A stretch of DNA of 64,000 bases from an uncultured Chloroflexia bacterium (GTDB lineage Bacteria > Chloroflexota > Limnocylindria > Limnocylindrales > CSP1-4). The position numbers were made by a program, and so were the translations under genes. The stretch is taken from NCBI GenBank assembly GCA_963725875.1, contig CAVRZZ010000003.1:336817-400816 (forward strand), written 5' to 3'. The notes beneath the pieces were generated by a model. The model saw only the letters and a list, made by a program, of their open reading frames with translations. It did not search any database and was not told the origin of the DNA. Shown here one piece after another: positions 9,669 through 63,564 of the stretch. Positions within the stretch are counted from its first letter, which is position 1. Every line of letters begins with the position of its first letter.

Positions 9669-9685
9669 GGTCGTTCCCCTACCTC

Positions 9686-12519: not shown

Positions 12520-12570
12520 GACGTTCTCTCCCTCGGCGACGATTGGACGGGTGGTTCGCGATCAGGCGTC

Positions 12571-30427: not shown

Positions 30428-30512
30428 CGTAGCGGGCCGCGGGCGAGCGCGGGGCGTACGATCGGACACCACGTCCCTCGTCGCCGCCCCGTCTCGCCAC
30501 CCGGAGGTCAGG

Positions 30513-31064
30513 ATGTTCCGGCTCCTCTCGACGCTCCTCGCGAAGCGCCTGGCCCGGCGCTTCGCGAAGCTCCTCGCCCTTCTCCTCGGCGCCTCGATCG
30601 GGGCCGGCGTCGCCAGCGCGCTGGCCGCGCTGAACCTCAAGAAGAAGGCACCGCCGCTCCCGGACCCGGCCGACGACGTCATCGACGTCGTCGCGATCAT
30701 GGAAGGCGCGCAGCTCGCCAGCCGCGCGACCGCCTTCCGCGGCGGCCGGCTCGTCTGCTGGTACGCGGGGGTCGACCTGGACCTGCGCGACGCGACGCTC
30801 GCCCCCTCTGGTGCGCATCTCGAGGTGCGGACCGTGTTCGGCGGCACCCGCGTCGTCGTCGCCCAGGGCGTGCCGGTCCGCGTCGGCGGACCCGCGATCT
30901 TCGGCGGCACGATGAACTCGACGGGTGCGCCCCAGCCGTCGGCCGACGCCCCGGGGCTGGAGATCACCGGCTTCACGATCTTCGGCGGGCTCCAGGTCAT
31001 CGCCGCCGAGCAGGGCGAGGAGATCCCCGGCTGGACCGGCGAGCGCGACCGCCCGCCGGCCTGA
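30513..31064 (+). CDS. Membrane-anchored beta-rich protein, LiaF/DUF2154(DUF4097)-like
   Basis: GGAGG 6 nt upstream of the ATG. N-terminal TM 'LLALLLGASIGAGVASALAAL', then 'LVCWYAGVDLDLRDATL...FGGTRVVVAQGVPVRVGGPAIFGG' repeats typical of LiaF-C-like domains. Confidence 0.5.
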   Translation: MFRLLSTLLAKRLARRFAKLLALLLGASIGAGVASALAALNLKKKAPPLPDPADDVIDVVAIMEGAQLASRATAFRGGRLVCWYAGVDLDLRDATLAPSGAHLEVRTVFGGTRVVVAQGVPVRVGGPAIFGGTMNSTGAPQPSADAPGLEITGFTIFGGLQVIAAEQGEEIPGWTGERDRPPA

Positions 31065-35249: not shown

Positions 35250-35681
35250 TCAGGCGGTCGGCGCCTCCACCTTGAGGCCCTCACGCTCGGCGGCCAGGGC
35301 CAGCCGGTCGTCGAGCGTGACCAGCACGAGCGACGCGGGATGGCCCTCCGATGCTGCCAGGGCGGCGGCGAGCTGCAGCGCGTCCCCGGCGCGCAGGGCG
35401 TGAACGCGCAACAACCGCGACGCCAGGGCTCGCACCTGCTCCGACGGCTGGACCTCAGCCCAGGCCAGCTCGAGTGCGTCGAGCCGCTCGTACGCCTGGC
35501 GCGTCGCGACCGGGTCCAGGGCGCCCTCGCGCTCGAGTCGAGCGAGGGCCGACACGCACTCGATCGCCGTGCCCCACCACGTGATCACCTGCGGGTCGGC
35601 CTCGAAGCCCGCCGCGGCCGACGCGCTCGTCGCCTCGTGGACGAGCAGCGGGACCAGGGCGGACGTGTCCCAGAACCTCAC
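35250..35681 (-). CDS. vapC: Type II toxin VapC (PIN-domain ribonuclease)
   Basis: 'MRFWDTSALVPLL' is a PIN N-terminus with the conserved Asp. Size and the overlap with the upstream antitoxin fit a VapBC pair. Confidence 0.75.
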   Translation of the reverse strand: MRFWDTSALVPLLVHEATSASAAAGFEADPQVITWWGTAIECVSALARLEREGALDPVATRQAYERLDALELAWAEVQPSEQVRALASRLLRVHALRAGDALQLAAALAASEGHPASLVLVTLDDRLALAAEREGLKVEAPTA

Positions 35682-35971
35682 CAGCCCGACCGTCGCTCTT
35701 CCAGGACCACGTCGACGATGCTCCTGGCCTCGCGGGGCCGAGGCGCGGGCGAGCGGAGGAGCTCGACCGGCGGTGCGGCGCGGCCGACCCGCACGGCGCC
35801 GGCCCGTTCGAGACGCGCGAGGCGCCCGGCCGGGTCCGGCCCCACCGCTGCCGGCTCGAGACGCGCGACCACGACCCCGCGGTCTGTGACGAGAACGCTC
35901 TCGCCGGCCCGGACGTGGTCGACATAGGCGCTCAGGCCGTTCTTGAGCTGGCTGATCGAAGCGGTCTTCAT
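35678..35971 (-). CDS. Type II antitoxin (Phd/YefM-like), VapB partner
   Basis: 'MKTASISQLKNGLSAYVDHVRAGESVLVTDRGVVVARLE', 97 aa. 4-nt overlap with vapC. Confidence 0.7.
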   Translation of the reverse strand: MKTASISQLKNGLSAYVDHVRAGESVLVTDRGVVVARLEPAAVGPDPAGRLARLERAGAVRVGRAAPPVELLRSPAPRPREARSIVDVVLEERRSGW

Positions 35972-36066
35972 GTGGCTAGTATGGCCATGTCCACGTGGCC
36001 TGTCTAGAGTCGTGCGTCCACGTGGCACCTGACGGGCACCGTGCCTGCCGTCGCGGGGGCACGCTT

Positions 36067-36822
36067 CTACGGTCGCGGGGGCACCGTGCCGACGTGGATC
36101 GTGACGATGCCGCCCGACATCCCGATCCAGCGGGTCCCCACGAGACCCGCCTCGCGCATGACCTCGGCAATCCGCTCCGGTGCCGGGTAGTTCTGGACGC
36201 TGCGCACGAGGTAGGCATAGGCGCCGCCCTGCCCGGCGACCTTCCCGATGAGGGGCACGATCCGGTCGAACCACCAGCGCATGACGCGGGCGAGACGGCT
36301 CCGCGGCCGGGCGATCTCGAGGCACACGACCTTGCCTCCCGGGCGGACGACCCGGGCCATCTCCGCGAACCCCTTCGCGTAGTCGGGCAGGTTGCGCATC
36401 CCGAACGCGATCGTGGCGGCGTCGAAGCCGTCGTCGGCCGCCGGCAGGGCCAGCGCGTCGCCGACCACGAACGTAAGCCCCGGCTGACCATCGTACCGGT
36501 TTCGGGCGACGCCGATCATCCCGGGGCTCAGGTCCACCCCGAGGACCTCGCCGCCCGGCTGGGCCGAGCGCAGGAGGTCGGCCGCCACCTTGCCGGTGCC
36601 GGTCGCGACGTCGATCGCGCGCCCGCCGGCCCTGAGCCCGGCGAACGCGACCGCCCGCCTCCGCCAGCGCGGCTCCTGGAACGCGCTGACGACCAGGTTC
36701 ATCGGGTCGTAGACGCCGCTGATCCGGTCGAACATCGCGCCGACCTCGGCGGGCGCGGCGGCGTTGCCGCGCTCGGTGGCGAGGCCGGACGGGGCACCGT
36801 CGCGCGGGTCGGGGGTGGTCAT
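36067..36822 (-). CDS. ubiE: Demethylmenaquinone methyltransferase (UbiE/MenG, class I SAM methyltransferase)
   Basis: 'VLGVDLSPGMI', 'VVGDALALP', 'FDAATIAFGMRNLPD', 'PGGKVVCLE'. AGGAG 9 nt upstream. Start overlaps the menE stop. Confidence 0.9.
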   Translation of the reverse strand: MTTPDPRDGAPSGLATERGNAAAPAEVGAMFDRISGVYDPMNLVVSAFQEPRWRRRAVAFAGLRAGGRAIDVATGTGKVAADLLRSAQPGGEVLGVDLSPGMIGVARNRYDGQPGLTFVVGDALALPAADDGFDAATIAFGMRNLPDYAKGFAEMARVVRPGGKVVCLEIARPRSRLARVMRWWFDRIVPLIGKVAGQGGAYAYLVRSVQNYPAPERIAEVMREAGLVGTRWIGMSGGIVTIHVGTVPPRP

Positions 36823-39110
36823 GCGAGTCTCTCCTGGGGCTGCGGCGGGCGGGCGGGCGGCCCGGGGTGTGCGGATCCCGGCGGCCCGGGCGGTGTGGAT
36901 GCGGGAGCCGCGGGGAGCGCCAGCGCCTCGCGCAGGGCGGCCGCGATCGGCACGGGATCGGTGATCGGCGCGGTATGGCGTAGCCCCGGCAGGTCGCGGC
37001 GGCGCGCGCCGGGGATCCGGGCCGCGAGCGCGTCGGCGATCGGGGCATAGAAGGGCTCCGACGACGCCCCGGCCAGGATCGTGACCGGGCAGGCGATGCC
37101 GGCGAGCCCGGCGGGGTCGACTCCCTCCATCGCCGCGTCGGCCACCGCGCCGCCGCCCTCCTCCTCGAGGAACGCCCGGGACCGCTCCGGCAGCGCCTCC
37201 CAGGCGCCGGGGCCGGCCACGCCGCGCATGAACGCGCGGGCGGCGGCCGCGGCCCCGCCGCGCGCCAGCGCCTCCGTCGTGGCCTGCGCCACCCGCGCGA
37301 AGGCGCGCCGGGCCCGCTCGCCGGCAACCGGTCCGTACGGCGGCTCGTAGGCGACGACCGCGGCCACGCGCTCCGGGAGGCGCGCCGCCGCCTCGAGCGC
37401 CACGACGCCCCCGAAGCTGTGCCCGAGCAGGACCGCGCGGTCGACCCCCTCCACGTCGAGGAGCGCGGCCAGGTCGGCCACGTGCTCCGCGATCGAGACC
37501 GCGCGCGGTGGATCGAGACGCCGGTGGCCGCTGCCCAGCCGATCGGGGGCCAGGACGCGCAGGTCGCCCGGTGCGGCGAGCGCTCGTGCGAGCGGCGCCA
37601 GCTGGCGACCCGTGGAGAGCGTCGCGTGGAGGACGACGACGGCCGGCGTGAGTCGGTCGCGGAGCTCGCCGCGCCGCAGCTTGCCGGCCGCGGTGCGCGG
37701 CAGCGCGTCGAGGCGGACGAAGGCGGCCGGCACTTCGTACGGGGCCAGCCGCTCGCGGCACCAGGCCCGGAGCCGCTCGTCGCCGGGGTCGCCCGGGTCG
37801 CCTGCGCCCTCGCGGAGGACGATGCCGGCCACCGGCACGGCGCCCCAGGTCGCGTCCGGCCGGCCGGCGACGCCGGCCTCGACGACGGCCGGGTGGGCCT
37901 CGATGACGGCCTCCACCTGCGCCGGGTAGACGTTCTCACCACCGCTGACGACGAGGTCGGCCCGCCGGTCGGCGACGAAGAGCCGCGCCGCCGCGTCGAG
38001 ACGTCCGAGGTCGCCCGTCCGCAGCCAGCCGTCCAGGGTGAAGGCCGCCGCGGTCCCCGCCTCGAGCCCGAGGTAGCCGCCGAACGCCGCCGGCGTCCGG
38101 ACCTGGATCTCCCCGACCCCGTCCGCGCCCGGCTCGGCGATCCGGACAACGACCCCGGGCAGGGGCCGGCCGGCGGAATCCGGCAGGACGGCGGCTTCCC
38201 CGGCCGGCAGCGCCGTCACGCCCGAGCCGGCCTCGGTGAGGCCGTAGGTCGGGACCACCGGCCAGCCCGCGGCTGTCGCCCGCCGCACGAGGTCCGGCGA
38301 GATCGGGGCCCCGCCCAGCAGCACGGCCCGCAGGGTCGTCGGCAGTCGCTCGCCCGCGGCGGCGGCCAGGAGCCGCTCGAGCTGCGCGGGGACGAGCGAG
38401 ACGTGGCTCGGGGCGTTGGGCTCGCCGAGCGCGGCGAGCACCGCGGCCGCGTCGAACGGGTCGACGACGTGGAGCGGCACGCCTGCGCCGACGGCCCGCC
38501 ACGCCACCCCGAGCCCGGCGACGTGGGCAAGGCCGAGGCACAGGAGCCAGCCGGTCGCCGGCGGGAGCGCGGCAGCCCAGGCGAGGGCGCTGGCGGCCAG
38601 CGAGGCATGGGAGAGGATCGCCGCCCGTGGCGTGCCGGTGGTTCCCGAGGTGAGGACGGCGACCGCCGGGGCGGCCGGATCCACGGGGATCGCGCGGCGG
38701 TCGCCGACCCGGGCGCCGGCGACGAGGCCCGCCGGGTCGCGCGCGGGCACGCCGTGACCGGCTGCCGCGGCCGCCAGCCCGGGGTCGTGGACGAGCAGCC
38801 GGGGCGCGGCCGCCGTCAGGGCCGCGGCGATCTGCGGGCGGGCGAGGCGCGTCCCGAGCGGGACGGCGACGGCGCCGGCCCGGCCGATCGCCGCGAGGAG
38901 CGCGACGGCCCCGGCCGACGGGCCGGCGAGGAGCGCCACCCGGTCGCCGGGCTCGATCCCGGCCGCCTGCAAGCCGGCGGCCGCGAGGTCGGCCAGCCGA
39001 TCGACTTCCGCCCAGGGGTGGTCGCCGGCAGCGTCGCGCACCGCGAGGGCACGCGGTCGCGCAGCCGCATGCCGCCGGAGATCGAGGGCGAGGATCGGCC
39101 CGAGGCTCAC
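36819..39110 (-). CDS. menE: o-Succinylbenzoate-CoA ligase (MenE) fused in frame to a C-terminal alpha/beta-hydrolase domain
   Basis: AMP-binding motifs 'LTSGTTGTPRAAIL', 'TYGLTEAGSG', 'GWLRTGDLGRLD', 'PRTAAGKLRRGELRDRL'. The frame then continues without a stop into 'VVLHATLSTG...LLGHSFGGVVALEAAARLP' (GxSxG nucleophile elbow). About 763 aa in total. GTG start overlaps the menC stop (GTGA). Confidence 0.85.
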   Translation of the reverse strand: MSLGPILALDLRRHAAARPRALAVRDAAGDHPWAEVDRLADLAAAGLQAAGIEPGDRVALLAGPSAGAVALLAAIGRAGAVAVPLGTRLARPQIAAALTAAAPRLLVHDPGLAAAAAGHGVPARDPAGLVAGARVGDRRAIPVDPAAPAVAVLTSGTTGTPRAAILSHASLAASALAWAAALPPATGWLLCLGLAHVAGLGVAWRAVGAGVPLHVVDPFDAAAVLAALGEPNAPSHVSLVPAQLERLLAAAAGERLPTTLRAVLLGGAPISPDLVRRATAAGWPVVPTYGLTEAGSGVTALPAGEAAVLPDSAGRPLPGVVVRIAEPGADGVGEIQVRTPAAFGGYLGLEAGTAAAFTLDGWLRTGDLGRLDAAARLFVADRRADLVVSGGENVYPAQVEAVIEAHPAVVEAGVAGRPDATWGAVPVAGIVLREGAGDPGDPGDERLRAWCRERLAPYEVPAAFVRLDALPRTAAGKLRRGELRDRLTPAVVVLHATLSTGRQLAPLARALAAPGDLRVLAPDRLGSGHRRLDPPRAVSIAEHVADLAALLDVEGVDRAVLLGHSFGGVVALEAAARLPERVAAVVAYEPPYGPVAGERARRAFARVAQATTEALARGGAAAAARAFMRGVAGPGAWEALPERSRAFLEEEGGGAVADAAMEGVDPAGLAGIACPVTILAGASSEPFYAPIADALAARIPGARRRDLPGLRHTAPITDPVPIAAALREALALPAAPASTPPGPPGSAHPGPPARPPQPQERLA

Positions 39111-40276
39111 CCGGCCGCCTCCACGACCTCGACCGCGAACCGCCGCAGGGCCGCGTCGTCGAGGGCGATCCCGAGGCCGCCGGTGCCCACCCCGCCGGGC
39201 GCTGCCAGCCGGCCGTCCTCGACGAGCAGCGGCGTCCGGAGCAGGTCGTGCTCGAGGAGGCCGGCCGTCGCGAGGCCATGCGGGAGCGGGCCGGCAGCGC
39301 CGCGCCACCGGACTGCCGGCAGCGCCGCGGCGGCGGCCCGGGCGGCCGCCACGCCGATCCCCGTCTCGAACAGCGTGGAGAGGACCACGGGCACGCCGCG
39401 CGCCGCGGCCCCCGCGGCAATCTCCGCCACCGCGACCGGGCCGCCGACCCGTGCCGGCTTCACGACCAGGACGTCGGCCGCCTCGGCAGCCAGGACGGCG
39501 CGCGCGCCTCCCGGCGAGTAGACCGCCTCGTCGGCGGCGATCGGGACCGCGACCCGGCGGCGCAGCTCGGCCGCGCCCTCCGTGTCGTCCGCCGCGAGCG
39601 GCTGCTCGGCGTACTCGAGGTCGAACCGCGCCACCGCCTCCAGGCGGTCCTCGGCCGTCGCGAGGTCCCAGGCCCCGTTGACGTCGAGCCGGAGCCGGAT
39701 CTCGGGGCCGACGGCCTGCCGGATCGCGCGAACACGCGCAACGAGGTCCTCGGTCTCGCGCTCGGCGCCGGCCTTGAGCTTGAGGGTCCGGAAGCCCGCC
39801 TCCATCGCCTGGAGGGCAGCTTCGGCACCTTCGCGGGGAGCGGCGAACCCGATCGTGCCGTTGACGGGGACGGCGGCCCCGTCGGGGTCGAGCGCCAGGT
39901 CGAGCCTTGCGGCGTCGAGGGCCGCCCGGAAGGCCCGGCCCGGCCCACCCAGCAGCTCCAGCTCCTCCGGGTCCGGGAGATCCCCCTCGCGAGCGCCGCC
40001 GGTCGCATCCCGGATCGCCCGCGCCAGGATCGTCTCCTCGACCTCGGTCGCGTCGGGCTCGAGGACCGCCTCGCCGGCCGCGAGCCGGCCGTCGGCACCC
40101 TCCAACAGCACGATCCACGCCTCGCGGTGGAGCCACATCCCGGTGGCGGTGGCGAACGGCCGCCGGAACGGAACGCGGACGCGGAGCGCGGAGAGGCCGC
40201 CGACCTTCACCGCCTCGAGGAGGTCGCGCAGGGCGGCGGCATCGCCCGGGTGGGCCCGCTCCCGGGTGTCGCTCAT
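39107..40276 (-). CDS. menC: o-Succinylbenzoate synthase (MenC, enolase superfamily)
   Basis: 'LKLKAG', 'LRLDVNGAW', 'LEYAEQP', 'ADEAV', and its position in the men operon. Confidence 0.9.
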   Translation of the reverse strand: MSDTRERAHPGDAAALRDLLEAVKVGGLSALRVRVPFRRPFATATGMWLHREAWIVLLEGADGRLAAGEAVLEPDATEVEETILARAIRDATGGAREGDLPDPEELELLGGPGRAFRAALDAARLDLALDPDGAAVPVNGTIGFAAPREGAEAALQAMEAGFRTLKLKAGAERETEDLVARVRAIRQAVGPEIRLRLDVNGAWDLATAEDRLEAVARFDLEYAEQPLAADDTEGAAELRRRVAVPIAADEAVYSPGGARAVLAAEAADVLVVKPARVGGPVAVAEIAAGAAARGVPVVLSTLFETGIGVAAARAAAAALPAVRWRGAAGPLPHGLATAGLLEHDLLRTPLLVEDGRLAAPGGVGTGGLGIALDDAALRRFAVEVVEAAG

Positions 40277-41235
40277 GTCGCGGGGCCCCCGATCTGCACC
40301 CCGGCGAGGGCCAGGCCGGCCCCGAAGAGCACGCCGAAGACGAGCGCCAGCCGCGCCGTGCCCTTGAGCACCGCGTTCAGCTCGCCCGGCCGCTCGAAGT
40401 CGCGGACGGTCCGCATGAGGGACACCGCGAGTGGCAGGGTGAGGAGCGGCAGGCCCTGGACGAGGGCCGGGAGGCCGCCACCGGCTGCCAGCCCGGCCGC
40501 GGCGAGGGCCGCCGGGACGGCGAAGGCGATGCCCAGCAAGAGCGCGTACTCGAGCGCCGTGCGCTCCCGGCCGAGGATGACGGCGAGCGTACGCTTGCCG
40601 GCCGTGGCATCGGTCGGGATGTCGCGCAGGTTGTTCACGACGAGGATCGCGGTGACCAGCGCCCCGACCGGGATGGCCGCGAGGAAGAAGAGCGGGTTGA
40701 GGCGCAGGGCCTGGAGATAGGCCGTGCCGGCCACAGCGACGAGCCCGAAGAAGATGAAGACGAAGACCTCGCCGAGGGCCCGGTAGCCGTACGGGAAGGG
40801 CCCGCCCGTGTAGGCCAGCGCGGCGACGATGGCCAGCGCCCCGAGCGCCAGGATCACCGGCCCGCCCACGACCACCAGCCACAGCCCCACGAGGCCGGCG
40901 ATGGCGATGACGAGCCCGATCGCGACCTCCAGCTGGCGTTCGGTGACGAGGCCCGAGGCGGCCACCCGCGTCGGGCCGGCGCGATCGGGCGTGTCGGCGC
41001 CGCGGCGGTGATCCGAGAGGTCGTTGGCGAGGTTCGCAAGCACCTGGAGCAGCAGGGCCACCGCGAGGCATCCGAGCGCGGTGTCGAGGCGGAACGGCGT
41101 CCCGACCGCGAGCGCGGCCCCGAGCCCGACCACGACCCCAGACGCGGCCGCCGGCAGGGTCGCCGGGCGGATCGCGAGGAGCCAGATGCGGAGCGCGGAC
41201 GGGCGATCGACCCGCGGCGAGGACCCGCTGCTCAC
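40273..41235 (-). CDS. menA: 1,4-dihydroxy-2-naphthoate polyprenyltransferase (MenA, UbiA family)
   Basis: Polytopic membrane protein. '[11 protein letters not shown]' Asp-rich motif. GTG start overlaps the menB stop. Confidence 0.85.
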
Positions 41236-42080
41236 GGACGACGCGGGAACTTCGTGAAGTCCGGCCTCCGCTTCTCGAGGAAGGCGCGCGATCCCTCGTG
41301 CGCCTCGTCGGTCGTGTAGTACAGGCCGGTCGTGTTGCCGGCGAACTCCTGGAGCCCGGCCAGCCCGTCGGTCGCCACGAGGAAGGCCGACTTGAGGAAG
41401 CGGATCGCCGTCGGGCTCATGGCCAGGATCTCGTCGGCCCAGGCGACCCCCTCGGCCTCGAGATCGGCCAGCGAGACGACCCGGTTCACGAGCCCCATCC
41501 CCAGGGCCTCGTCGGCCGTGTACTGGCGGCACAGGAACCAGATCTCCTTGGCCTTCTTGTCGCCCACCAGCCGGGCCAGCAGGCCGATTCCGAAGCCGGC
41601 GTCGAAGCTGCCGACGCGGGGGCCGACCTGCCCGAAGACCGCGTTGTCGCTGGCGATCGAGAGGTCGCACACGACGTGGAGGACGTGGCCGCCGCCGATC
41701 GCGTAGCCGTTGACCAGGGCGATCACCGGCACCGGCAGCGACCGGATCTGGCGCTGCAGGTCGAGCACGTTGAGGCGGGCGATCCCGTCCTCGCCGACGT
41801 ACCCGCCGGCGTGGCTCTTGTAGTTCTGGTCACCGCCGGAGCAGAAGGCCGCGTCGCCCGCCCCGGTAAGCAGGACGCAGCCGATGGAGGGGTCGTCGCG
41901 GATCCGCGCGAAGGCGTCGATCAGCTCGGCGACGGTCTGCGGGCGGAAGGCGTTGCGGACCTCCGGCCGGTTGATCGTGACCTTCGCGATCCCGGTCCCG
42001 GAGTGCTCGTGGCGGATGTCGCGGTACTCCCGGACGGGGGTCCAGGTGACGGGCGACGGGGATGGGGCGGGCGTGGTCAT
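41232..42080 (-). CDS. menB: 1,4-dihydroxy-2-naphthoyl-CoA synthase (MenB, crotonase fold)
   Basis: '[15 protein letters not shown]', '[13 protein letters not shown]', '[22 protein letters not shown]', '[10 protein letters not shown]'. Confidence 0.95.
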
Positions 42081-43018
42081 GCGGCGGTCTCCAGGAGGAA
42101 GTCGAGGACGAGGGCGTGGAACCGGTCGGGTCGCTCGAGGTGCGGAGCGTGGCCCGCGCCGGCGACGACCGCGAGGCGCGCGCCGGGGATTGCCGCGGCG
42201 ACCTCCTCGGCCCGGGCCCGCGCGGGATCGGCGGCGCCGGCCACCACCAGCGTCGGGGCGGTGATCGCGGCGAGGCGGTCATGGAGCGGCTCCATCGCGC
42301 CCTGGCCGCCGTAGACGAGCGACGCAGCGAGGCCGAGCGGGGCGTTGGCGCGGCGGATCGCCGCCTGGCGGCTGCGGGCCGTGGCGGGGAGGGCCGCCTC
42401 GCCGGCGAGGACCGGCTCCGCCGCCCAGCGCGCGGCGAATGCCTCGATGCCCTCGGCCACGGCGAGCCGGGCCCACTCCGCGTCGGCGGCGGCGCGCTCG
42501 GCCCGTGCCGCGGGATCGGCGATCCCGGCGGACGGTGCCTCGAGCACCAGGCGCCGGACCAGCGGGGGGTGGGCCACGGCCAGGCGGAGGGCGATCCGGG
42601 CGCCCATCGAGTAGCCGACGACGTCCACGGGCCCGGCGCCGAGGCGCCGCACGAGCGAGGCCAGGTCGTCTGCCGTCCGCTCCACCGAGGTCCGGGGGCG
42701 GTCGTCGGGCGCGGCGGCGGCCGGCAGGCCCGCAGATGCCACGCCCGGGACGGCCGCGCCCGGGGCGGCCCCGCCCAGGGTGACCCCGTGCAAGGCGCCA
42801 GCCGCGACGGGCGCAACCGCGGTGGGGGCCCGAGCGACGTCGGCCTGCCAGCCCGTCCCCCCGTGGCCTGGCAGGTCGGGGACGATGGCCCGGACGCGGC
42901 TGCCCAGCCCCGCGATCGCGGCCCACGAGAGACCGCTGCCCGAGAAGCCGTGAAGGAACAGGACGGGCTGACCGTGGCCCGCGACCCGGACCGTCCAGCG
43001 CATCCCCGCGATCTGCAT
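42077..43018 (-). CDS. menH: 2-succinyl-6-hydroxy-2,4-cyclohexadiene-1-carboxylate synthase (MenH, alpha/beta hydrolase)
   Basis: '[13 protein letters not shown]', '[11 protein letters not shown]', C-terminal '[11 protein letters not shown]'. Sits between menD and menB. Confidence 0.8.
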
Positions 43019-43032
43019 CCGCAGGCGCTCGC

Positions 43033-44841
43033 TCACGGGGCCGTCTCCCCCGGGTCCCCGTCGAGCAGCTCGGCGAGCGCGGCCTGTACCGCGGCCGCAG
43101 CTTCGCGGTGAAGGGCGACGTTGCGGGCCCGCTCGGTCCGAAGCTCGAGGACCTGGATGCCCGGCGTCGCCAGCGAGGCTTCGAGTGAGGGACGCAGCTC
43201 GGCCGGTCCGACCCGCCGGTGCTCGGCCCCAAGCGCCGTCACCGCCGGCCCGAGGTCGATCCCGTGCGGCGTGCCGAAGAGCTCCTCGAAGTGGGCCGGC
43301 AGGCCGGCCGCCGGCACCGACGCCGTGGCCTGGGGCAGGAACGAGAAGATCCCGCCGCCGTCGTTGGCGATCGCCACGATCGTCGCGGAGAGGCCGTGCA
43401 GGCGCGCCGCCACGAGGGCGGTGAGGTCGTGGAGCAGGGCAACGTCGCCGATCACGAGCGCCGTCGGCGCCCCGGCGGCGGCCGCGCCGAGCGCCGACGA
43501 GAGCACGCCGTCGATCCCGTTGGCGCCCCGGTTGGCGAGCGGCCGGATGGCGCGCGGCCCGGCCGGCAGCCAGGCGTCCATGTCGCGCACGGGCATCGAG
43601 CTGCTGGCCCACAGGATGCCGCCGTCGGGCAGGAGGTCGCCGAGGATGGCGAACGGGGCGCCCTCGAACGCCTCGCCGGACCCGGTGAGCCCGGCGAGCC
43701 AGCCGCGCAGCGCCCGGTCTGCGGCGCGATCCGCGGCGAGCCAGCGGTCGAGCCACGCGCTCCGGCGCGCCGGACTCGGCCGGAGGCGGCTCCCGGCCGT
43801 GCGGCGGTCGTCCCCGGCGAGCGCGTCGGCGAGCGCGTGCGCCGTCGTGGTCGCGTCGGCTTGGACCATCGTCGCCGGGACGATCGCCGGCTCGCGCCAG
43901 CCCGCCTCGCCGTCGACGACGACAAGGTCCGGACGGCGCTCCTCCAGCAGGGTGAGCAGCGCCTTGGAGGTGGACATCGCCCCGAAGCGGAGGACGAGGT
44001 CTGGCTCGTTCGCCTCGCGCCACGGCCCGGGGCGCATGAGCTGGTCGCCGCGCGCCATCACGAGGGATCGGTCGTGCGGGCCGCACCGCGCCAGCGAGAG
44101 CGGATCCGCAAGGACCGGCCAGCGCAGGGCCGCGGCGAGGCGACCCAGCGCGGCCGGAAGGGCGGGGTCGTCCTGCGGCCCCGCTGCGATGAGGCCGCGC
44201 TCGACGCGGGCGAGCCGGCGGGCCAGGTCCTCCGCGTCGCCGTCCGCGAGCACGCGCCGGCCGGCAACGACCCGGATGGACGGCTCGCCCGGCAGCGGGC
44301 CCAGCGGCCCGTCCGGGACGAGCGGCTCGCGGAACGGGACGTTGAGGTGGACGGGGCCGGCCGGGCCGGCCGCGGCGGTGACGACGGCGCGGGCCGCGAC
44401 ACCCGCGACGTGGCGCCGCGTGACGTCCTCGCCGTCGAGGAGCGGCAGGTCGGCGAACCACTTCGCGTGGGTGCCGAAGAGCCCCACCTGGTCGATCGTC
44501 TGCGGGGCGCCGCGGTCGCGCAGCTCCGGCGGCCGATCCGCGGTGAGGATCACCAGCGGCACCCTGCCCAGGGAGGCCTCGACGACAGCCGGCAGGAGGT
44601 TCGCCGCGGCCGTGCCGGAGGTCGTGAGGACCGCCACGGGCCGCCGGCCGGCCTTCGCGATCCCGAGCGCGAAAAAGCCTGCGCTCCGCTCGTCGAGCAG
44701 GACCCGGACGCGGATCCCGGGGTGGGCGCGCAATGCCAGGGCGAGCGGCATGGAGCGGGAGCCCGGGCAGACGACCGCGTCGGCGACGCCCGCCGCGGCG
44801 AGCTCGTCGACGAACCCGCGCAGGGCGAGGGTGTCGGTCAT
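43033..44841 (-). CDS. menD: 2-succinyl-5-enolpyruvyl-6-hydroxy-3-cyclohexene-1-carboxylate synthase (MenD, ThDP enzyme)
   Basis: 'AVVCPGSRSMPLALAL', 'LLDERSAGFFALGIAKA', 'GNDGGGIFSFLPQ'. Strong SD (GGAGGAGGCGGAGG) before the ATG at 44841. Confidence 0.9.
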   Translation of the reverse strand: MTDTLALRGFVDELAAAGVADAVVCPGSRSMPLALALRAHPGIRVRVLLDERSAGFFALGIAKAGRRPVAVLTTSGTAAANLLPAVVEASLGRVPLVILTADRPPELRDRGAPQTIDQVGLFGTHAKWFADLPLLDGEDVTRRHVAGVAARAVVTAAAGPAGPVHLNVPFREPLVPDGPLGPLPGEPSIRVVAGRRVLADGDAEDLARRLARVERGLIAAGPQDDPALPAALGRLAAALRWPVLADPLSLARCGPHDRSLVMARGDQLMRPGPWREANEPDLVLRFGAMSTSKALLTLLEERRPDLVVVDGEAGWREPAIVPATMVQADATTTAHALADALAGDDRRTAGSRLRPSPARRSAWLDRWLAADRAADRALRGWLAGLTGSGEAFEGAPFAILGDLLPDGGILWASSSMPVRDMDAWLPAGPRAIRPLANRGANGIDGVLSSALGAAAAGAPTALVIGDVALLHDLTALVAARLHGLSATIVAIANDGGGIFSFLPQATASVPAAGLPAHFEELFGTPHGIDLGPAVTALGAEHRRVGPAELRPSLEASLATPGIQVLELRTERARNVALHREAAAAVQAALAELLDGDPGETAP

Positions 44842-46292
44842 GCCTCCGCCTCCTCCAGGCGACCGAGGGCCGAGGCGACCGGGCGCAGCTTGATCCGCGA
44901 CTCCTCCCACTCGAGCGCCGGGTCGGAGTCGGCGACGATGCCGCAGCCCGCGAAGAGCGTCGCCGCCCGGCCGTCGACCAGCCCGCACCGCAGGGCGACC
45001 ATCAGCTCACCGTCGCCGTCGGCGCCGAGCCAGCCCACGGGCCCGGCGTACCAGCCCCGGTCGAAGCCCTCGTGCTCGGCGATGAGGTCGAGCGCAGCGC
45101 CGCGCGGCTCGCCGCCGACGGCCGGCGTCGGGTGGAGGCGTTGCGCCAGCGCCAGGATGCCCGTCTCGTCGCGCAGCAGGCCCTCCATCGGCGTGACGAG
45201 GTGCTGGACGTGGCGAAGCGCGAGGATCCCGGGCTCGGGGGCCACCTCGAGGCGCTCCGCGATGGGCCGGAGGGCGTCGCGGAGCATCGCCACGACCACG
45301 GCGTGCTCCTCCCGGTCCTTGTCGCTCACGAGGAGGCCGGCGGCGAGCCGGGCATCCTCGGCGGCATCGGCTCCCCGCGGGGCAGAGCCGGCGATGGCAA
45401 CCGTGCGAAAAGCGCGTCCCTCCGTGCGGGCGAGCCGCTCGGGCGTCGCGCCGAGGAACGTCACGCCGTCCCGGACGAAGGCGAAGGTCGTGCTCTCCGG
45501 GCCCGCAGCCGCGAGGCGCCGCAGGGCGTTGAGCGGGTCGAGCTCGAGTGGCGAGAGGACGGCCACGCGGCGGGCCAGGACCACCTTGTCGAGGCGGCCG
45601 CGGCCCACCGCGCCCGCGAAGAGGCCGACGAGCCGGTCCCACGCGGCGCGGTCGGGCTGCTCCCCGGTGATCGCGAGCGGGGCGCCGGCCGGCCGGGCCA
45701 CGAGCGCGCCCGGCGCCGGCGTGAGCTCACGGGCCCGCGCGGCCAGCCTGTCCCAGAGCCGGGCGTGGGAGCGCGCCGACGAGCTCGCCCCGCCCACGGC
45801 CGCGGCCGTGACGAACGTCCCGTCGGCGGTGCGCGCGACCGCGAGGGCGGGCAGGACGAGCGAGGACGCCCCGAAAGCCGCCCACGCGTCGCCGGCGCCC
45901 GGGAGGGTGCCGGTGAACCCGAGGCCGCCGAGCAGCACGGGCCCTGCACCCCGCGGCAGGCCGGCAGGATCGCCCGCCGGGCCACCGAGCGCCGCCCCGT
46001 CCAGCAGCTCGCGCCAGGCGTGCGCTGCCGTCTCGAACCGGTCGGGCCCTGCCGGCTCGACGGCCCACGCCCGGCCGATCGCCACGATCGCCGTTCCCTC
46101 GGCCGGCTGCAGCCAGAGCCCGGCCTCCAGGTCCGCCTCGCGGGCCGCCGCGAAGAGCGCCAGCGGATCGACCTCCTCGACCCGCGCCGTGGCCGCCCGC
46201 AGGCGTCCCGGCGCGACCCCGGACAGCGCCTCGAGCGCCCGACCGAGGTCCTCGTCGCCGAGGTCGAGGCCAGGCCGGTCCACGACGGTCAT
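44838..46292 (-). CDS. menF: Isochorismate synthase (MenF)
   Basis: Chorismate-binding blocks 'KVVLARRV', 'TTFAFVRDGVTFLGATPERL', 'GGEPRGAALDLI', 'GWYAGPVGWL', 'ALRCGL', 'AGCGIVADSDPALEWEESRIK'. Confidence 0.9.
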   Translation of the reverse strand: MTVVDRPGLDLGDEDLGRALEALSGVAPGRLRAATARVEEVDPLALFAAAREADLEAGLWLQPAEGTAIVAIGRAWAVEPAGPDRFETAAHAWRELLDGAALGGPAGDPAGLPRGAGPVLLGGLGFTGTLPGAGDAWAAFGASSLVLPALAVARTADGTFVTAAAVGGASSSARSHARLWDRLAARARELTPAPGALVARPAGAPLAITGEQPDRAAWDRLVGLFAGAVGRGRLDKVVLARRVAVLSPLELDPLNALRRLAAAGPESTTFAFVRDGVTFLGATPERLARTEGRAFRTVAIAGSAPRGADAAEDARLAAGLLVSDKDREEHAVVVAMLRDALRPIAERLEVAPEPGILALRHVQHLVTPMEGLLRDETGILALAQRLHPTPAVGGEPRGAALDLIAEHEGFDRGWYAGPVGWLGADGDGELMVALRCGLVDGRAATLFAGCGIVADSDPALEWEESRIKLRPVASALGRLEEAEA

Positions 46293-46960
46293 CGGCCGGA
46301 CCCCCCCGCGCCCCAGGCGCCGCCGATCCGCGCCTCGGGAACCCCGACGCTCCGGAGCAGCAGCGCACGGAGCGTGGGATAGGCGTCCTCCAGGAGCCCG
46401 GGGTCGTCGGCGAGGAGCCAGCGGGCGACAACCTCGTTGAGGGCGCCGAACCAGGCCACGCCGGTGATCGCCGTGTCGATCGGCGGGATCGAGCCGTCGG
46501 CGACCGCCTCGTCGAGATACCCGGCGATGAGGCGCGCGAAGCGGTCGTGCAGGGCGTTCGTCTCGGCGTTGAACGCGCGGCCGGCGCCGAGGGCGTCGAG
46601 GAACAGGAGCCGGGCCATCGTGCGGTGCCCGGCGAACGTCGTCAGGACCGTGTGGAGCGCCGCTTCCGCCCTCGCGATGGGGTCGGTCTCGGCGGCCACT
46701 GCGCGGTCCACCTTCACCGCGAGCCGGTCCGCCGTCGAGCGCATCAGCTCGCGGAAGATCGCCTCCTTGGTCGCGAAGTGGAAGTAGACGCCGCCCTTGG
46801 AGGTGTCGGCGGCCGCGGCGATGTCGTCGACGGCCGTGTCGCGATACCCGCGGCGCGCGAAGGTGTTGAACGCGGCATCCAGGATCTGCTCGCGCCGCGT
46901 CCGGCTCTTCTCGGCCTGGGCCGTCGTCCGCGTGTCCGTCGTCCGCTTGTCGGTGGTCAT
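46289..46960 (-). CDS. TetR-family transcriptional regulator, first gene of the men operon
   Basis: HTH 'REQILDAAFNTFARRGYRDTAVDDIAAAADTSKGGVYFHFATKEAIF'. Its stop overlaps the menF start (ATGA). Confidence 0.85.
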   Translation of the reverse strand: MTTDKRTTDTRTTAQAEKSRTRREQILDAAFNTFARRGYRDTAVDDIAAAADTSKGGVYFHFATKEAIFRELMRSTADRLAVKVDRAVAAETDPIARAEAALHTVLTTFAGHRTMARLLFLDALGAGRAFNAETNALHDRFARLIAGYLDEAVADGSIPPIDTAITGVAWFGALNEVVARWLLADDPGLLEDAYPTLRALLLRSVGVPEARIGGAWGAGGSGR

Positions 46961-47077
46961 GGGCCGGCTCTCGTGCACCTTGCGTCGGATGACCCGCAAA
47001 ACCGACCGACCGGTCGGTTTGCTCACTATACGTCGTTCGGGGGCGCGCTCCCGGCGGATGCCCGGCACGCCCGCGCC

Positions 47078-48376
47078 TCACCCGGCGGGCAGCTCGAGGA
47101 CGAACCGGGCCCCGCCTCCGGAGCCGTCGGCCACCGTGAGGGTCCCCTCGTGCAGCTCGACGAGGCGGCGCGCGATCGCGAGGCCCAGCCCGGAGCCCGC
47201 GTCGGCACGCGACCGCGACCCAGGCATCCGGGCGAACGGCTCGAAGATCTTCTCGCGCATTGCCGCCGGCACGCCGGGCCCCTGGTCCACGACCTCCACG
47301 CGCCCACGCCGGTCCCCGACGACGGCTGCCGTCACGGCCACGGTCCCGCCCTCCGGCGAGTGCCGGAAGGCGTTGTCCAGGAGGATCAGCAGGACCTGCA
47401 GGAGGCGGTCGGGGTCGCCCTCCGCGGCGATCGGGGGCGCGACGTCGTCCGGCCCGACCAGGCGCAGGCCGCGGTCCTCGGCGAGGGGCGTGGCGCGCCG
47501 CACCGCGGTGCGCGCCAGCGCAACCAGGTCGAGCGGCGAGGTCTCGATTGCGAGCGCGCCCTGCTCCGACGCAGCCAGGGCGAGCAGGTCCTCGACGAGC
47601 CGTCCGAGCCGATCGGCCTCGCCCACGATGTCGGCGACCAGCGGGCGGCCAGCGGGCGCGACGAGCTCCTCGCGCTCGAGGACCTCGGCCGAGGACCGGA
47701 TCACCGCGGCGGGCGTCCGGATCTCGTGGGAGGCATCCGCGACGAAGCGCCGCTCGGTCTCGAAGGCCGCCCGGATCGGCACGAGGGCACGGCCGGTGAT
47801 CCACACCGTCGCCAGCGCCGCGCCGACGAGGCCGACCGCGCCGACCACGAGAATGGCGAGCATGAGCGCCTGCGTCTGCCGATCGTGGAGCGTGAGCACG
47901 ATCCCGGCCTGGAGCCAGCCGGTGATCGCATTGTCGTGCGTGACCGGCGCCGTCAGGAGGCGGACCCGGGTGCCGCCGGCGTCCACGGTCCGCAGGTCGC
48001 TCCCCGCCGCCCGGGCGGCAGACACCGCGGCCTGGTCGGGAAGCCCCTCCAGCGAGACCCCGGACGGGTTGGAGACCAGGGCGCCCGAGGCGTCCAGGAC
48101 GAGGTAGAACGTGTCCGACGCCTGCGGCACGTGGCTCTCGGAGTCCTCTCCGCCCTCGGTCTTGACCTCGCCATCGAGCTGCGCGAGGTACGCCGCCGAT
48201 GCCGCGGCCAGGGCACGGTCGACCTCCGAGCGCAGGATCGAGGTGCCGACGAGCGCCGTCGCGACGCCGATCGCCAGGACCAGGGTGCCGATGACCGCGA
48301 GCGTCCCGACGGCCAGCCGCCGTCGCGTCCGCGCCAGGAGCGCCGCGTTGGGGCCGGCGGCGGACGTCCTCCTCAC
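47078..48376 (-). CDS. Sensor histidine kinase (HisKA/HATPase_c; partner of the OmpR-family regulator)
   Basis: TM, extracytoplasmic region, TM, then 'FVADASHEIRTPAAVIRSSAEVL' and 'LLDNAFRHSP', 'DQGPGVP', 'GSGLGLAIARRLVELHEG'. GTG start overlaps the regulator stop. Confidence 0.8.
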   Translation of the reverse strand: MRRTSAAGPNAALLARTRRRLAVGTLAVIGTLVLAIGVATALVGTSILRSEVDRALAAASAAYLAQLDGEVKTEGGEDSESHVPQASDTFYLVLDASGALVSNPSGVSLEGLPDQAAVSAARAAGSDLRTVDAGGTRVRLLTAPVTHDNAITGWLQAGIVLTLHDRQTQALMLAILVVGAVGLVGAALATVWITGRALVPIRAAFETERRFVADASHEIRTPAAVIRSSAEVLEREELVAPAGRPLVADIVGEADRLGRLVEDLLALAASEQGALAIETSPLDLVALARTAVRRATPLAEDRGLRLVGPDDVAPPIAAEGDPDRLLQVLLILLDNAFRHSPEGGTVAVTAAVVGDRRGRVEVVDQGPGVPAAMREKIFEPFARMPGSRSRADAGSGLGLAIARRLVELHEGTLTVADGSGGGARFVLELPAG

Positions 48377-49065
48377 GAGGGGTCGACCCGGAGCGCATAG
48401 CCCACGCCGCGGACCGTCCGCACCAGGCGTTCGCGGCCGAGCTCCGCAAGCTTCCGGCGTACGTAGCTCACGTACAGGTCGACGACGTTGGAGTAGACGT
48501 CGGGCTCGGCGCCCCAGACCGCGTCGAGGATCTGCTGGCGCGTGACGACCCGGCCCTCGTGGCGGATGAGGTAGGCCAGGAGCGCGAACTCGCGCGCCGA
48601 CAGGTCGACCGCCCGCGTGCCGACGCGCGCGACGTGGCGCTCCTGGTCCAGCTCCAGGTCGCCGGCCGTGAGCGGGCCCGGCGCGCTGACGGCCGGGCGA
48701 CGGCCGAGGGCCCGGACCCGGGCGAGCAGCTCGGAGAAGGCGAAGGGCTTGCCGAGGTAGTCGTCGGCACCGGCGTCCAGGCCGGCGACCCGCTCGTCGA
48801 CACCGCCGAGCGCGGTCAGGATGAGTGCCGGGGTGGCCACCCCGCGCGAGCGGAGGAGGCGCAGGAGCTCGAGACCCTCCAGGTCGGGAAGCATGCGATC
48901 GAGCACCAGGACGTCGTACGGCTCGCCCGTGCCGCTCGCGAACGCGAGGGCGCTCACGCCGTCCGGGGCGAGGTCCACCGCGTGGTTCTCCGCCACCAGG
49001 ACGCGCCGGAGGAGCTCGCCCATCCGGGGCTCGTCTTCGACCACGAGGATCCGCATCGGCCCCAT
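48373..49065 (-). CDS. Response regulator, OmpR/PhoB family
   Basis: 'MRILVVEDEPRMGELL', 'DVLVLDRMLPDLEGLELLRLLR', winged-helix 'LSAREFALLAYLIRHEGRVVTRQQILDAVWG...VVDLYVSYVRRKL'. Start could be the ATG at 49056. Confidence 0.85.
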   Translation of the reverse strand: MGPMRILVVEDEPRMGELLRRVLVAENHAVDLAPDGVSALAFASGTGEPYDVLVLDRMLPDLEGLELLRLLRSRGVATPALILTALGGVDERVAGLDAGADDYLGKPFAFSELLARVRALGRRPAVSAPGPLTAGDLELDQERHVARVGTRAVDLSAREFALLAYLIRHEGRVVTRQQILDAVWGAEPDVYSNVVDLYVSYVRRKLAELGRERLVRTVRGVGYALRVDPS

Positions 49066-49214
49066 CCTCGCGGCCGTGCGGGCGACCGTCAACGGCCGGA
49101 GGGCATTCCTGTGAGAACGCACATCCCGGGCACATGAGGGGTTCAGCGTCACGCGCGACACTCGCAGCATCCCGAACCGATCGCGGGCTCGACCCGCCGC
49201 ACCGGAGCTGACCC

Positions 49215-49980: not shown

Positions 49981-50970
49981 ATGCCGGCCGACGTGATGGC
50001 GACGCCCAGAACGCGGCCGTCGCCGGCGGAGCTGCCGCTCGAGCACACCACCCTCGCCGCACGGGCGATGGGCGGGCGGCTCGGCATCCACCTGGCGACC
50101 ACTCGCGGGGATCGCGCGACCGCCGCCCGGGATGCGCGCCGCGCGGCCGATCGCGTGGTCGCCTGGTCGCGGCTCCTCACGCGCCACGATCCCGGCTCGC
50201 CCCTGGTCCGCCTCAACGACGACCCGCGCGACGCCGTGCCCGTGGGACCGACCCTCGGCGCCGCGCTCGCGTGGGCCGACGACGCGGGCCTGATGACCGG
50301 CGGGCTCGTCGACGTCACGCGCCTCGCCGAACGCCTCGCGGCAGAAGCCGGCGACGCCGCCCTCGACGGCCCCGTCGCGCCGGCAGGCCAGTCCCCCGCG
50401 AGCTGGCGCGTCGACCGACGGGACCCGAGAACGGCCACGGTGGTCCGGGTTCCCGGCACGCGCTTCGACCTCGACGGCATCGGCAAGGGCTGGCTGGCGG
50501 ATCGCGCGCTGCGCCTCCTCGCGGGCCACCCGGGCGCCGTCGTGGACGCCGACGGCGACGTCGCGGCGCGGATCGCGCCCGGCGACCGGTGGGAGATCGG
50601 CGTGGCGGACCCGCGGAGCGACGACGCCATCCTGGCGCTGCTCGTGCTAGCCGACGAGCCCGGCACGTCCGCGCCGGGTCGCCGCACCTGGGGCGTGGCG
50701 ACCTCGGGCACGAGCATCCACCGTTTCGGCGTGCAGGCCCACCACCTGATCGACCCACGCACCGGTCGGCCCGCAGTGACGGACGTCGTCCAGGCGACGG
50801 TTGTCGCGTCCGGGGCGGCGGTGGCCGAGGTGTTTGCCAAGAGCGCCGTCATCCTCGGGTCCGCCGCTGGGCTCGACTTCCTCGACCGATCGGGCGTGGC
50901 CGGCGCGATCGTCCTCCTGGAGGACGGCAGGGTGCTCGCCCTGCCGCGCACCGCGGCGTTCCTCGCATGA
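49981..50970 (+). CDS. apbE: FAD:protein FMN transferase (ApbE family)
   Basis: 'TRFDLDGIGKGWLAD', 'GGLVDVTRL', 'WGVATSGTSIHRFG', 'HLIDPRTGRP'. Confidence 0.85.
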   Translation: MPADVMATPRTRPSPAELPLEHTTLAARAMGGRLGIHLATTRGDRATAARDARRAADRVVAWSRLLTRHDPGSPLVRLNDDPRDAVPVGPTLGAALAWADDAGLMTGGLVDVTRLAERLAAEAGDAALDGPVAPAGQSPASWRVDRRDPRTATVVRVPGTRFDLDGIGKGWLADRALRLLAGHPGAVVDADGDVAARIAPGDRWEIGVADPRSDDAILALLVLADEPGTSAPGRRTWGVATSGTSIHRFGVQAHHLIDPRTGRPAVTDVVQATVVASGAAVAEVFAKSAVILGSAAGLDFLDRSGVAGAIVLLEDGRVLALPRTAAFLA

Positions 50971-63504: not shown

Positions 63505-63564
63505 GTGCGTTTCCCTGCTCCTGTCCCTGTGCTCGGGCCGGGACCCTGCGCCCCGGCTCGGTGG

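Follow-up and report, generated by a model that had tools for sequence, protein, structure and literature searches.

The men cluster of an uncultured soil bacterium of the phylum Chloroflexota, class Limnocylindria, lies on the minus strand at positions 36067-46960 of the window, the 64-kb stretch of DNA that was analysed. The cluster comprises nine ORFs with ten domains, in the order tetR-menF-menD-menH-menB-menA-menC-menE::hydrolase-ubiE. Domains were called from Pfam and NCBIfam profile scores, each of which was compared with the cut-off of its family. The features are as follows.

47025-47030, minus strand: -10-like box TATAGT of the putative operon promoter, read from the sequence
46999-47020, minus strand: putative TetR operator, a 22-bp palindrome (AAACCGACCG-GT-CGGTCGGTTT) just after TATAGT and upstream of tetR
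46289-46960, minus strand: tetR, 223 aa, ATG start (PF00440, 59.4 bits, cut-off 24; PF17932, 33 bits)
44838-46292, minus strand: menF, isochorismate synthase, 484 aa, with ATGA overlaps at both ends (TIGR00543, 312 bits, cut-off 225)
43033-44841, minus strand: menD, SEPHCHC synthase, 602 aa (TIGR00173, 423 bits, cut-off 244)
42077-43036, minus strand: menH (hydrolase ABH1), SHCHC synthase, 319 aa, GTG start, with a GTGA overlap with menD
41232-42080, minus strand: menB, DHNA-CoA synthase, 282 aa (NF005637, 445 bits, cut-off 380; TIGR01929, 398 bits)
40273-41235, minus strand: menA, DHNA polyprenyltransferase, 320 aa (NF004751, 304 bits, cut-off 264)
39107-40276, minus strand: menC, o-succinylbenzoate synthase, 389 aa (PF13378, 166 bits)
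37647-39110, minus strand: MenE portion of the fusion, OSB-CoA ligase, residues 1-488 (PF00501, 193 bits; PF13193, 71 bits)
36819-37646, minus strand: ABH2, the alpha/beta-hydrolase domain of the fusion, residues 489-763 (PF12697, 59.9 bits; PF00561, 52.2 bits)
36067-36822, minus strand: ubiE/menG, demethylmenaquinone methyltransferase, 251 aa (TIGR01934, 198 bits, cut-off 158)

The preliminary description of this region had counted eleven genes, a number that falls to the nine ORFs listed. The gene identities and the order that it gave hold up, with Pfam or NCBIfam matches for all nine, and the first ORF is indeed the TetR regulator that was placed at the head of the operon. Its picture of near-complete coupling by 4-nt overlaps, among them the ATGA shared by the tetR stop and the menF start, is right about the overlaps and wrong about the exception. 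The 14-nt gap reported between menD and menH appeared because the ATG at 43018 had been picked as the menH start. With the GTG at 43036 as the start the gap vanishes, and all eight junctions are therefore 4-nt stop-start overlaps (ATGA or GTGA). This GTG has a GGAG sequence 8 nt upstream, and the N-terminus that it defines, V/M-SERLR(M/L)Q, is shared with 11 close relatives, including one in which the start codon is ATG. The final gene, ubiE/menG, shares an ATGA with the menE::hydrolase gene; on its 3' side, the next genes follow after a gap of 95 nt and have a promoter-like site of their own. The cluster is a genuine, tightly packed menaquinone (vitamin K2) operon. Neither the operon nor its translational coupling, in which the eight overlaps would link translation of all nine ORFs, is out of the ordinary.

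The region upstream of tetR contains a conserved palindrome that is likely to be a TetR operator. Of the 39 loci that cover the region upstream of tetR, 38 keep the 22-bp palindrome, and nearly all related loci have a TA(T/G/C)(A/C/G)(A/G)T box at a constant offset on its 5' side. Within the window there is one occurrence of the 18-bp core, compared with 0.24 expected when up to two mismatches are permitted. A TetR-type HTH domain and an inverted repeat at what is probably its own promoter are thus both present, as in systems of TetR with a palindromic operator. The nearest curated families of the regulator are FadR, FasR and ScbR, which are TetRs that bind acyl-CoAs or autoregulators, and all of them score far under their cut-offs. 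From these features we infer that transcription would begin at a promoter whose -10-like box abuts the palindrome, that TetR would bind the palindrome and thereby repress both its own gene and the eight enzyme genes, and that a pathway-related ligand would release it. The tetR gene also has an alternative start, a GTG at 46978.

Among the pathway enzymes, MenC and the MenE portion score under the cut-offs of their best NCBIfam matches, which are nevertheless the expected families (NF002782 OSB synthase, 154 bits; and TIGR01923, 310.3 bits, slightly under the cut-off of 330.15). The MenE portion includes the ANL motifs TSGTTG (P-loop), YGLTE, TGD and PRTAAGK, the lysine codon of the last being at 37680-37682, and its assignment is supported because it is sited in a complete men operon.

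The stand-alone hydrolase, ABH1, has TIGR03695 (MenH) as its best family, at 175.8 bits under a cut-off of 208.55, with the match in two stretches split by an insertion of roughly 45 residues. Its top PDB matches are MenH of Staphylococcus aureus (2xmz, 3e-25) and of Escherichia coli (2e-15). Ten non-glycine residues are invariant in MenH, namely Ser86, His232, Asp210, Tyr85, Arg90, Arg124, Asp128, Trp147, Arg168 and Lys212 (PMC3630204). When aligned to E. coli MenH, ABH1 has nine of the ten (Tyr142, Ser143, Arg147, Arg181, Asp185, Trp204, Arg228, Asp270 and the histidine of a GH pair), and the only change is Lys212 to Ala, at a position with a small kinetic effect (PMC3630204). By these residues, ABH1 is a genuine MenH. 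MenF, MenD, MenH, MenC, MenE, MenB, MenA and UbiE then account for all assigned steps of the classical pathway, and the sole step that lacks an assigned gene in the operon is the DHNA-CoA thioesterase. Searches of the predicted ORFs of the 64-kb window for the PF03061 hotdog domain, at thresholds from 1e-5 to 0.01, gave no match.

MenE reads into the second hydrolase, ABH2, without a stop, in a single ORF of 763 aa at 36819-39110. The stop-free fusion with a GHSFG motif, and the presence of a further, MenH-like hydrolase in the operon (ABH1), had both been recognized in the preliminary description, which also suggested looking for such fusions in other genomes. The full operon architecture recurs in approximately 50 species-level Limnocylindria genomes. 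In a comparison of 53 independent genome loci, MenE and the hydrolase form one uninterrupted frame in 42, and ABH2 is a separate gene adjoining menE in a few. The fusion does not stem from misassembly, because the loci with the single frame are independent and include metagenome-assembled genomes from short reads. ABH2 homologues of at least 43% identity directly follow menE at all loci with enough flanking sequence (about 50 species representatives), and at all of these except three (L039, L041 and L045) they precede ubiE. No homologue of 34% identity or less was found in a men operon. Clustering at 50% identity gives 15 or more clusters of full-length fusions, 745-875 aa long, and 10 of 10 long database representatives in this size range carry AMP-binding, AMP-binding_C and Abhydrolase domains. 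Literature searches found no description of a MenE-hydrolase fusion.

ABH2 belongs to the alpha/beta-hydrolase superfamily and is of the serine-hydrolase type, with the fold, the G-x-S-x-G elbow, the histidine and the acid all present. Ser565 (codon 37416-37418), Glu589 (37344-37346) and His712 (36975-36977) are invariant in all 74 homologues, and position 685 (Glu685, 37056-37058) is Glu or Asp in 70 of them. The AF2 model of the domain has a pLDDT of 93. Judging from these residues and from the model, ABH2 looks active, with an intact catalytic site of the Ser-His-Glu type. The junction lies about 12 residues past the A10 lysine of MenE, the domain's own N-terminal beta-hairpin is missing in this clade, and its tail is rich in proline and alanine.

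Because ABH2 and MenH share a fold and an operon, ABH2 might be a second SHCHC synthase, which would give the operon two MenH copies. MenH structures are among its fold-search matches, and there is a weak match to TIGR03695 over the N-terminal 100 residues. However, this match reaches 34.7 bits against the cut-off of 208.55, the PDB sequence matches of ABH2 include no MenH, and the Tyr and Arg that flank the MenH nucleophile at -1 and +4 are missing: the equivalent of Tyr85 is His, Val or Ile in ABH2 homologues, and that of Arg90 is the Val of the GHSFGGV motif. Since the MenH signature already resides in ABH1, the paralogue explanation is highly improbable, and ABH2 was rejected as a MenH.

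Neither sequence comparisons (family or PDB) nor fold comparisons yielded a signal for the substrate of ABH2. The best curated match is 3-oxoadipate enol-lactonase PcaD (TIGR02427, 60.6 bits; NF051488, 76.9 bits), at scores so far below the cut-offs (255.85 and 390, respectively) that ABH2 is not a member of either family, and the pca gene context of PcaD is missing at this locus. A lactonase-like activity would suit a serious rival to the thioesterase role, in which ABH2 is a metabolite-repair esterase. OSB-CoA, the product of MenE, decays spontaneously to OSB spirodilactone, and ABH2 might reopen the lactone and return OSB to the MenE to which it is fused. This postulated activity accommodates a fusion specifically to MenE about equally well. 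However, the similarities to lactonases do not exceed those to generic esterases, no repair enzyme of this kind is known from any organism, and the thioesterase step would stay without a gene in the operon. We regard the repair function as quite unlikely; if it proved true, the esterase long postulated to recycle OSB spirodilactone would have its first candidate in ABH2.

Other similarities constitute weak links to alpha/beta hydrolases that are capable of thioesterase activity. ABH2 scores 22.1 bits against PF00975 (type-II and PKS-NRPS thioesterases), under the gathering threshold of 26.4 and over the N-terminal 90 residues only, although the same profile reaches 27.2 bits in one distant fusion homologue. 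It also resembles E. coli YbfF (3bf8, E=1.6e-6; NF007954, 30 bits), which has acyl-CoA activity. Small alpha/beta hydrolases of the YbfF and BioH type, which act as esterases and acyl-CoA thioesterases, have a fold in common with ABH2, whose invariant acid lies 24 residues past the nucleophile, as in YbfF (Asp113, after Ser89).

These same similarities could point to a thioesterase that rescues CoA or proofreads, by analogy with PaaI and PaaY, which stand beside the PaaK ligase. ABH2 would then cleave OSB-CoA, or acyl-CoAs mis-activated by MenE, when MenB is limiting, and so protect the CoA pool. Its tether so close behind the A10 lysine of the ligase suits such a role, as does the choice of MenE as fusion partner, which fits about equally well here, and ligase-plus-thioesterase logic exists in other CoA-dependent aromatic pathways. 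However, if ABH2 constitutively cleaved what the adjoining domain makes, ATP would be wasted in a futile cycle, and nothing in the sequence points to OSB-CoA or another acyl-CoA over DHNA-CoA as the substrate. We consider a rescue function improbable.

A further set of possibilities places ABH2 outside synthesis of the naphthoquinone ring, as a hydrolase, esterase or acyltransferase (for example, in a lineage-specific modification of quinones or lipids), or makes it a scaffold that has no catalytic role and has become established in the operon. The invariant triad speaks against a scaffold, and the fixed position flanked by menE and ubiE, together with the class-wide fusion, favours a men-linked role. 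We consider this group of explanations unlikely.

The most parsimonious reading is that ABH2 is the DHNA-CoA thioesterase, to which we give slightly less than an even chance. Its basis is gene context, namely the pathway gap, the strict operon linkage and the fusion. MenE would load CoA onto OSB, MenB would cyclise OSB-CoA to DHNA-CoA, and ABH2 would free DHNA for MenA and give back CoA. The idea is strengthened because ABH2 is strictly men-linked and fused class-wide, because its triad is intact, and because it is clearly not MenH, the true MenH being encoded separately. Because the MenE and thioesterase steps are not consecutive, MenE is an unexpected partner for substrate channelling.

ABH2 would be a non-orthologous, non-hotdog substitute for MenI/YdiI. 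Hotdog thioesterases, including E. coli YdiI/MenI, Synechocystis Slr0204, Arabidopsis DHNAT, and MenI of S. aureus and Listeria, act in the reaction and pathway proposed for ABH2. However, they use an acidic general base, whereas ABH2 has a Ser-His-Glu triad, and they are stand-alone proteins whose genes often lie apart from men operons; ABH2, by contrast, is part of the MenE polypeptide or is encoded beside menE. The characterized DHNA-CoA thioesterases found in literature searches all have the hotdog fold, which counts against the proposal, and a hotdog enzyme encoded elsewhere in the genome may fill the step instead. As an alpha/beta hydrolase, ABH2 lacks the hotdog (4HBT) fold of MenI/YdiI and Slr0204 (PF03061), and this lowers the case that it is a MenI, but leaves unaffected the case that it works like one. 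Moreover, the known enzymes have independent origins in different taxa, which provides a precedent for lineage-specific displacement.

For the class as a whole, we tentatively propose, at somewhat less than even odds, that in Limnocylindria an alpha/beta-hydrolase thioesterase joined to MenE replaces the hotdog MenI of the organisms studied so far, that one polypeptide loads and unloads CoA, and that the co-transcribed TetR senses an intermediate. In classical menaquinone and phylloquinone synthesis, a gene was assigned to the DHNA-CoA thioesterase step later than to any other; the enzyme differs between lineages, and in most phyla its identity has been guesswork so far. ABH2, conserved class-wide, is the best available candidate for this step, and the fusion offers a concrete, cheaply testable thioesterase candidate of a different fold. 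Likewise, TetR and its conserved putative operator would be the first defined men regulatory element in this lineage, which is uncultured and lives in soil and fresh water. Proteins of 750-870 aa annotated as "alpha/beta fold hydrolase" or "OSB-CoA ligase" in these genomes are probably better labelled as bifunctional.

Precedents exist for fused men enzymes, with partners that differ from those of MenE::ABH2. Plant PHYLLO is a fusion of MenF, MenD, MenC and MenH. A predicted fusion of a HAD hydrolase to MenI, termed MenY, is found in gut bacteria, and fusions and operon context have previously been used to predict non-orthologous replacements (PMC4746308). MenH itself (E. coli 4mxd and 4gdm, S. 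aureus 2xmz) resembles ABH2 in its alpha/beta-hydrolase fold, Ser-His-acid triad and occurrence in men operons. Historically, MenH was mis-assigned as the DHNA-CoA thioesterase. The alpha/beta hydrolase Rv0554 (BpoC) of Mycobacterium tuberculosis, which we take to be encoded in the men gene cluster of that organism, is a stand-alone protein with 19% identity to ABH2, and is nearer in sequence to ABH1 and MenH than to ABH2.

Spurious ORFs are plentiful in the window because its G+C content is ~75%. Codon-position G+C indicates uninterrupted minus-strand coding from ~36050 to 48200, the reading frame changing at gene borders. When the frame-consistent ORFs are scanned with Pfam and NCBIfam, the menaquinone (men) operon has nine genes, not the eleven of the preliminary description. 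In transcription order these are:

46289-46960, minus strand, TetR
44838-46292, minus strand, MenF
43033-44841, minus strand, MenD
42077-43036, minus strand, MenH-like alpha/beta hydrolase (ABH1)
41232-42080, minus strand, MenB
40273-41235, minus strand, MenA
39107-40276, minus strand, MenC
36819-39110, minus strand, MenE::alpha/beta-hydrolase, 763 aa (its hydrolase domain is termed ABH2)
36067-36822, minus strand, UbiE/MenG

The response regulator and histidine kinase genes on one side, or the Phd/PIN pair on the other, were considered as the source of the higher count, but these lie beyond the interval in which eleven genes had been placed. The near-complete start-stop overlap described earlier extends to all eight junctions, each an ATGA or GTGA. 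The 14-nt gap thought to separate menD and menH is absent, and is the product of taking the ATG at 43018 as the menH start. The GTG at 43036 is a better start because GGAG occurs 8 nt upstream and the resulting N-terminus, VSERLRMQ, is kept in 11 close relatives; one uses ATG there. This start also yields the overlap with menD. Apart from the gene count and this one start codon, the first description of the operon, including coupling and gene content, was correct, and all of this is ordinary biology.

The fusion of MenE to ABH2 is a new variation on a known pathway organization. Translation of 36819-39110 contains no internal stops and runs from the ANL motifs through PRTAAGK and, ~12 residues on, into VVVLHATLS...GHSFGG. 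Among 53 loci subjected to an ORF-continuity test, MenE and ABH2 share one uninterrupted frame in 42, short-read metagenome-assembled genomes (MAGs) included. A contig end prevents judgment in two, six are long-read contigs with many frameshifts, and in three (L031, L036 and L043) ABH2 is apparently a separate adjacent gene, in agreement with abundant stand-alone database proteins of 284 aa. A compact family emerged when 1.84 billion cluster representatives were searched exhaustively with HMMER: only 129 proteins have E <= 1e-30. At least 15 of these are 745-875 aa long with the hydrolase C-terminal, and all 10 long proteins tested have AMP-binding, AMP-binding_C and Abhydrolase domains. Public records call them nothing more specific than "alpha/beta fold hydrolase" or "O-succinylbenzoic acid--CoA ligase". 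Most fused forms retain the N-terminal beta-hairpin of the hydrolase behind a linker of 4-40 residues; in the window's clade the hairpin is lost and the two domains are joined directly. This pattern implies that the fusion is old and real. The fusion noted in the preliminary description is real, ancient and class-wide. The C-terminal tail (residues ~736-763, window 36819-36900) is Pro/Ala-rich, predicted with low confidence and variable in length among relatives, and ends in …PAAPASTPPGPPGSAHPGPPARPPQPQERLA.

ABH2 homologs occur in MAGs from Chloroflexota, under the labels Limnocylindrales or "uncultured Chloroflexia". When the window's ten proteins were compared by tblastn with 82 fetched loci, the order TetR-MenF-MenD-MenH-MenB-MenA-MenC-MenE-ABH2-UbiE was recovered in essentially all loci with an ABH2 homolog of >=43% identity and sufficient flank (about 50 species representatives). 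Homologs of <=34% identity, in Actinomycetota, Acidobacteriota, a haloarchaeon and others, occur outside men operons.

Two apparent variants of this architecture were rejected. An "ABH-UbiE fusion" (protein P0103), which at first resembled a Rosetta-stone case, is an assembly artefact, as its contig (L002) is frameshifted throughout the operon. Many database homologs of 430-480 aa comprise only AMP-binding_C and the hydrolase, which hinted at a naturally split MenE. However, the split in locus L001 reflects frameshifts within a variable MenE loop, and intact genomes carry a single ORF. The men operon is frameshift-rich in many public long-read MAG contigs of the lineage (L002, L004, L011, L031 and L048-L054), and database proteins in which MenE looks split or the hydrolase looks fused to UbiE, such as P0005 and P0103, are frameshift artefacts that would mislead domain-architecture surveys.

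Sequence comparisons identify the stand-alone ABH1 as MenH. In the PDB it best matches the MenH proteins of Staphylococcus aureus (3e-25) and Escherichia coli (2e-15), and nine of 10 MenH-invariant residues have equivalents. The sole difference is at Lys212, which is kinetically unimportant (PMC3630204). The match to TIGR03695 (175.8) is interrupted by an insertion and falls under the cut-off. By the same comparisons ABH2 is not MenH: it carries His and Val at the positions of MenH Tyr85 and Arg90, its MenH model score is 34.7 bits, and no MenH is among its PDB sequence matches. That ABH2 is a second SHCHC synthase is therefore essentially excluded.

In an alignment of 74 ABH2 homologs, Ser565 (the GHSFG serine), Glu589 and His712 are invariant. 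Glu589 lies in EPPY, 24 residues past Ser565 and directly after strand beta6; at the canonical position after beta7, Glu/Asp685 is present in 70 of the 74. AlphaFold2 predicts, with high confidence (pLDDT 93), an alpha/beta core and a helical lid. In searches of PDB and NCBIfam by sequence, ABH2 gave generic, sub-threshold matches only. In short, ABH2 looks like an active serine hydrolase, and neither sequence nor predicted fold reveals its substrate.

The only classical-pathway step without a gene in the operon is hydrolysis of DHNA-CoA, and a search of the ORFs predicted in the 64-kb window revealed no hotdog thioesterase gene. It is quite possible, though tentative, that ABH2 is the DHNA-CoA thioesterase, because its operon linkage is strict and class-wide, it is fused to a CoA-loading enzyme, its triad is intact, and a separate, genuine MenH exists. 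Known DHNA-CoA thioesterases are hotdog proteins, whereas ABH2 is an alpha/beta hydrolase. These enzymes arose independently in different taxa, so displacement in another lineage is plausible. The literature searched contained no alpha/beta-hydrolase DHNA-CoA thioesterase, no description of a MenE-hydrolase fusion and no precedent for menaquinone in Limnocylindria. Alternatively, ABH2 could be an esterase that reopens OSB spirodilactone, the spontaneous decay product of OSB-CoA. Such an esterase has been explicitly postulated and never identified (PMC6210188), and its product would be the MenE substrate, a better fit to the fusion partner; even so, we consider this reading doubtful. A CoA-rescue thioesterase acting on OSB-CoA is slightly more doubtful, and an unrelated role, or one of another kind, is unlikely, if somewhat less so than either. 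The functional hypothesis of a DHNA-CoA thioesterase is testable.

The operon is preceded by a 117-nt spacer, from the stop of the histidine kinase gene (47078) to the tetR ATG (46960), which contains two elements:

47025-47030, minus strand, -10-like box TATAGT
46999-47020, minus strand, palindrome AAACCGACCG-GT-CGGTCGGTTT, directly after TATAGT

The palindrome, preceded by a -10-like box, is found upstream of tetR in 38 of the 39 loci covering this region, and its core occurs once in the window. This layout is as would be expected for a TetR protein that represses its own promoter and the eight downstream genes. We infer both the binding of TetR to the palindrome and a TetR ligand; the nearest curated TetR families (NCBIfam) are acyl-CoA or autoregulator binders, all matched far under cut-off. 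The literature searched offered no precedent for men operons regulated by a TetR protein, and the conserved putative operator is a useful addition to the description of the operon.

This conserved putative promoter/operator parts the operon from the response regulator and histidine kinase genes upstream. Because a 95-nt spacer with a separate promoter-like site lies beyond ubiE, parting the operon from the Phd/PIN pair, the operon most likely extends from 47030 to 36067. A terminator scan gave no more than three matches, all weak and intragenic, a result consistent with chance.

The OmpR-type response regulator (48373-49161, minus strand) and histidine kinase (47078-48376, minus strand) genes overlap by 4 nt, and 117 nt separate the end of the pair from tetR. 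Because only the closest relatives keep the kinase in this place, it probably borders the men operon without belonging to it. Directly downstream of ubiE, 35250-35971 (minus strand) encodes a Phd/YefM antitoxin of 97 aa and a PIN-domain toxin of 143 aa, also with a 4-nt overlap. Their sigma-70-like promoter-like site is at 36006-35978, and the pair likewise follows ubiE in related locus L001.

Quinone- and flavin-related neighbours at 52465-54654 (plus strand), 49981-50970 (plus strand) and 62944-63579 (minus strand) comprise an ABC1/UbiB-type atypical kinase whose N-terminus carries an unusual 4-TM holin-like domain, an ApbE flavin transferase and a YceI-like (polyisoprenoid-binding) protein. 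A 697-aa protein (28907-31000, minus strand) has both an ADP-ribosylglycohydrolase domain and a DSP-PTPase "Swiss Army Knife" phosphatase domain, and its gene overlaps that of a PfkB-family kinase (27993-28910, minus strand). In the region 12520-15366, G+C is slightly lower and AT skew is strong; the codon-bias filter called no gene there, and no Pfam family matches its long minus-strand ORFs (12687-13697 and 13454-14989). A series of likely secreted or peptide-modifying genes at 656-12519 (minus strand) may represent a graspetide-type or extracellular-protease cluster:

656-1600, minus strand, MvdD-like ATP-grasp
1613-2923, minus strand, astacin
3661-6147, minus strand, subtilase
6744-9698 and 11086-12519, minus strand, two multicopper-oxidase-like proteins
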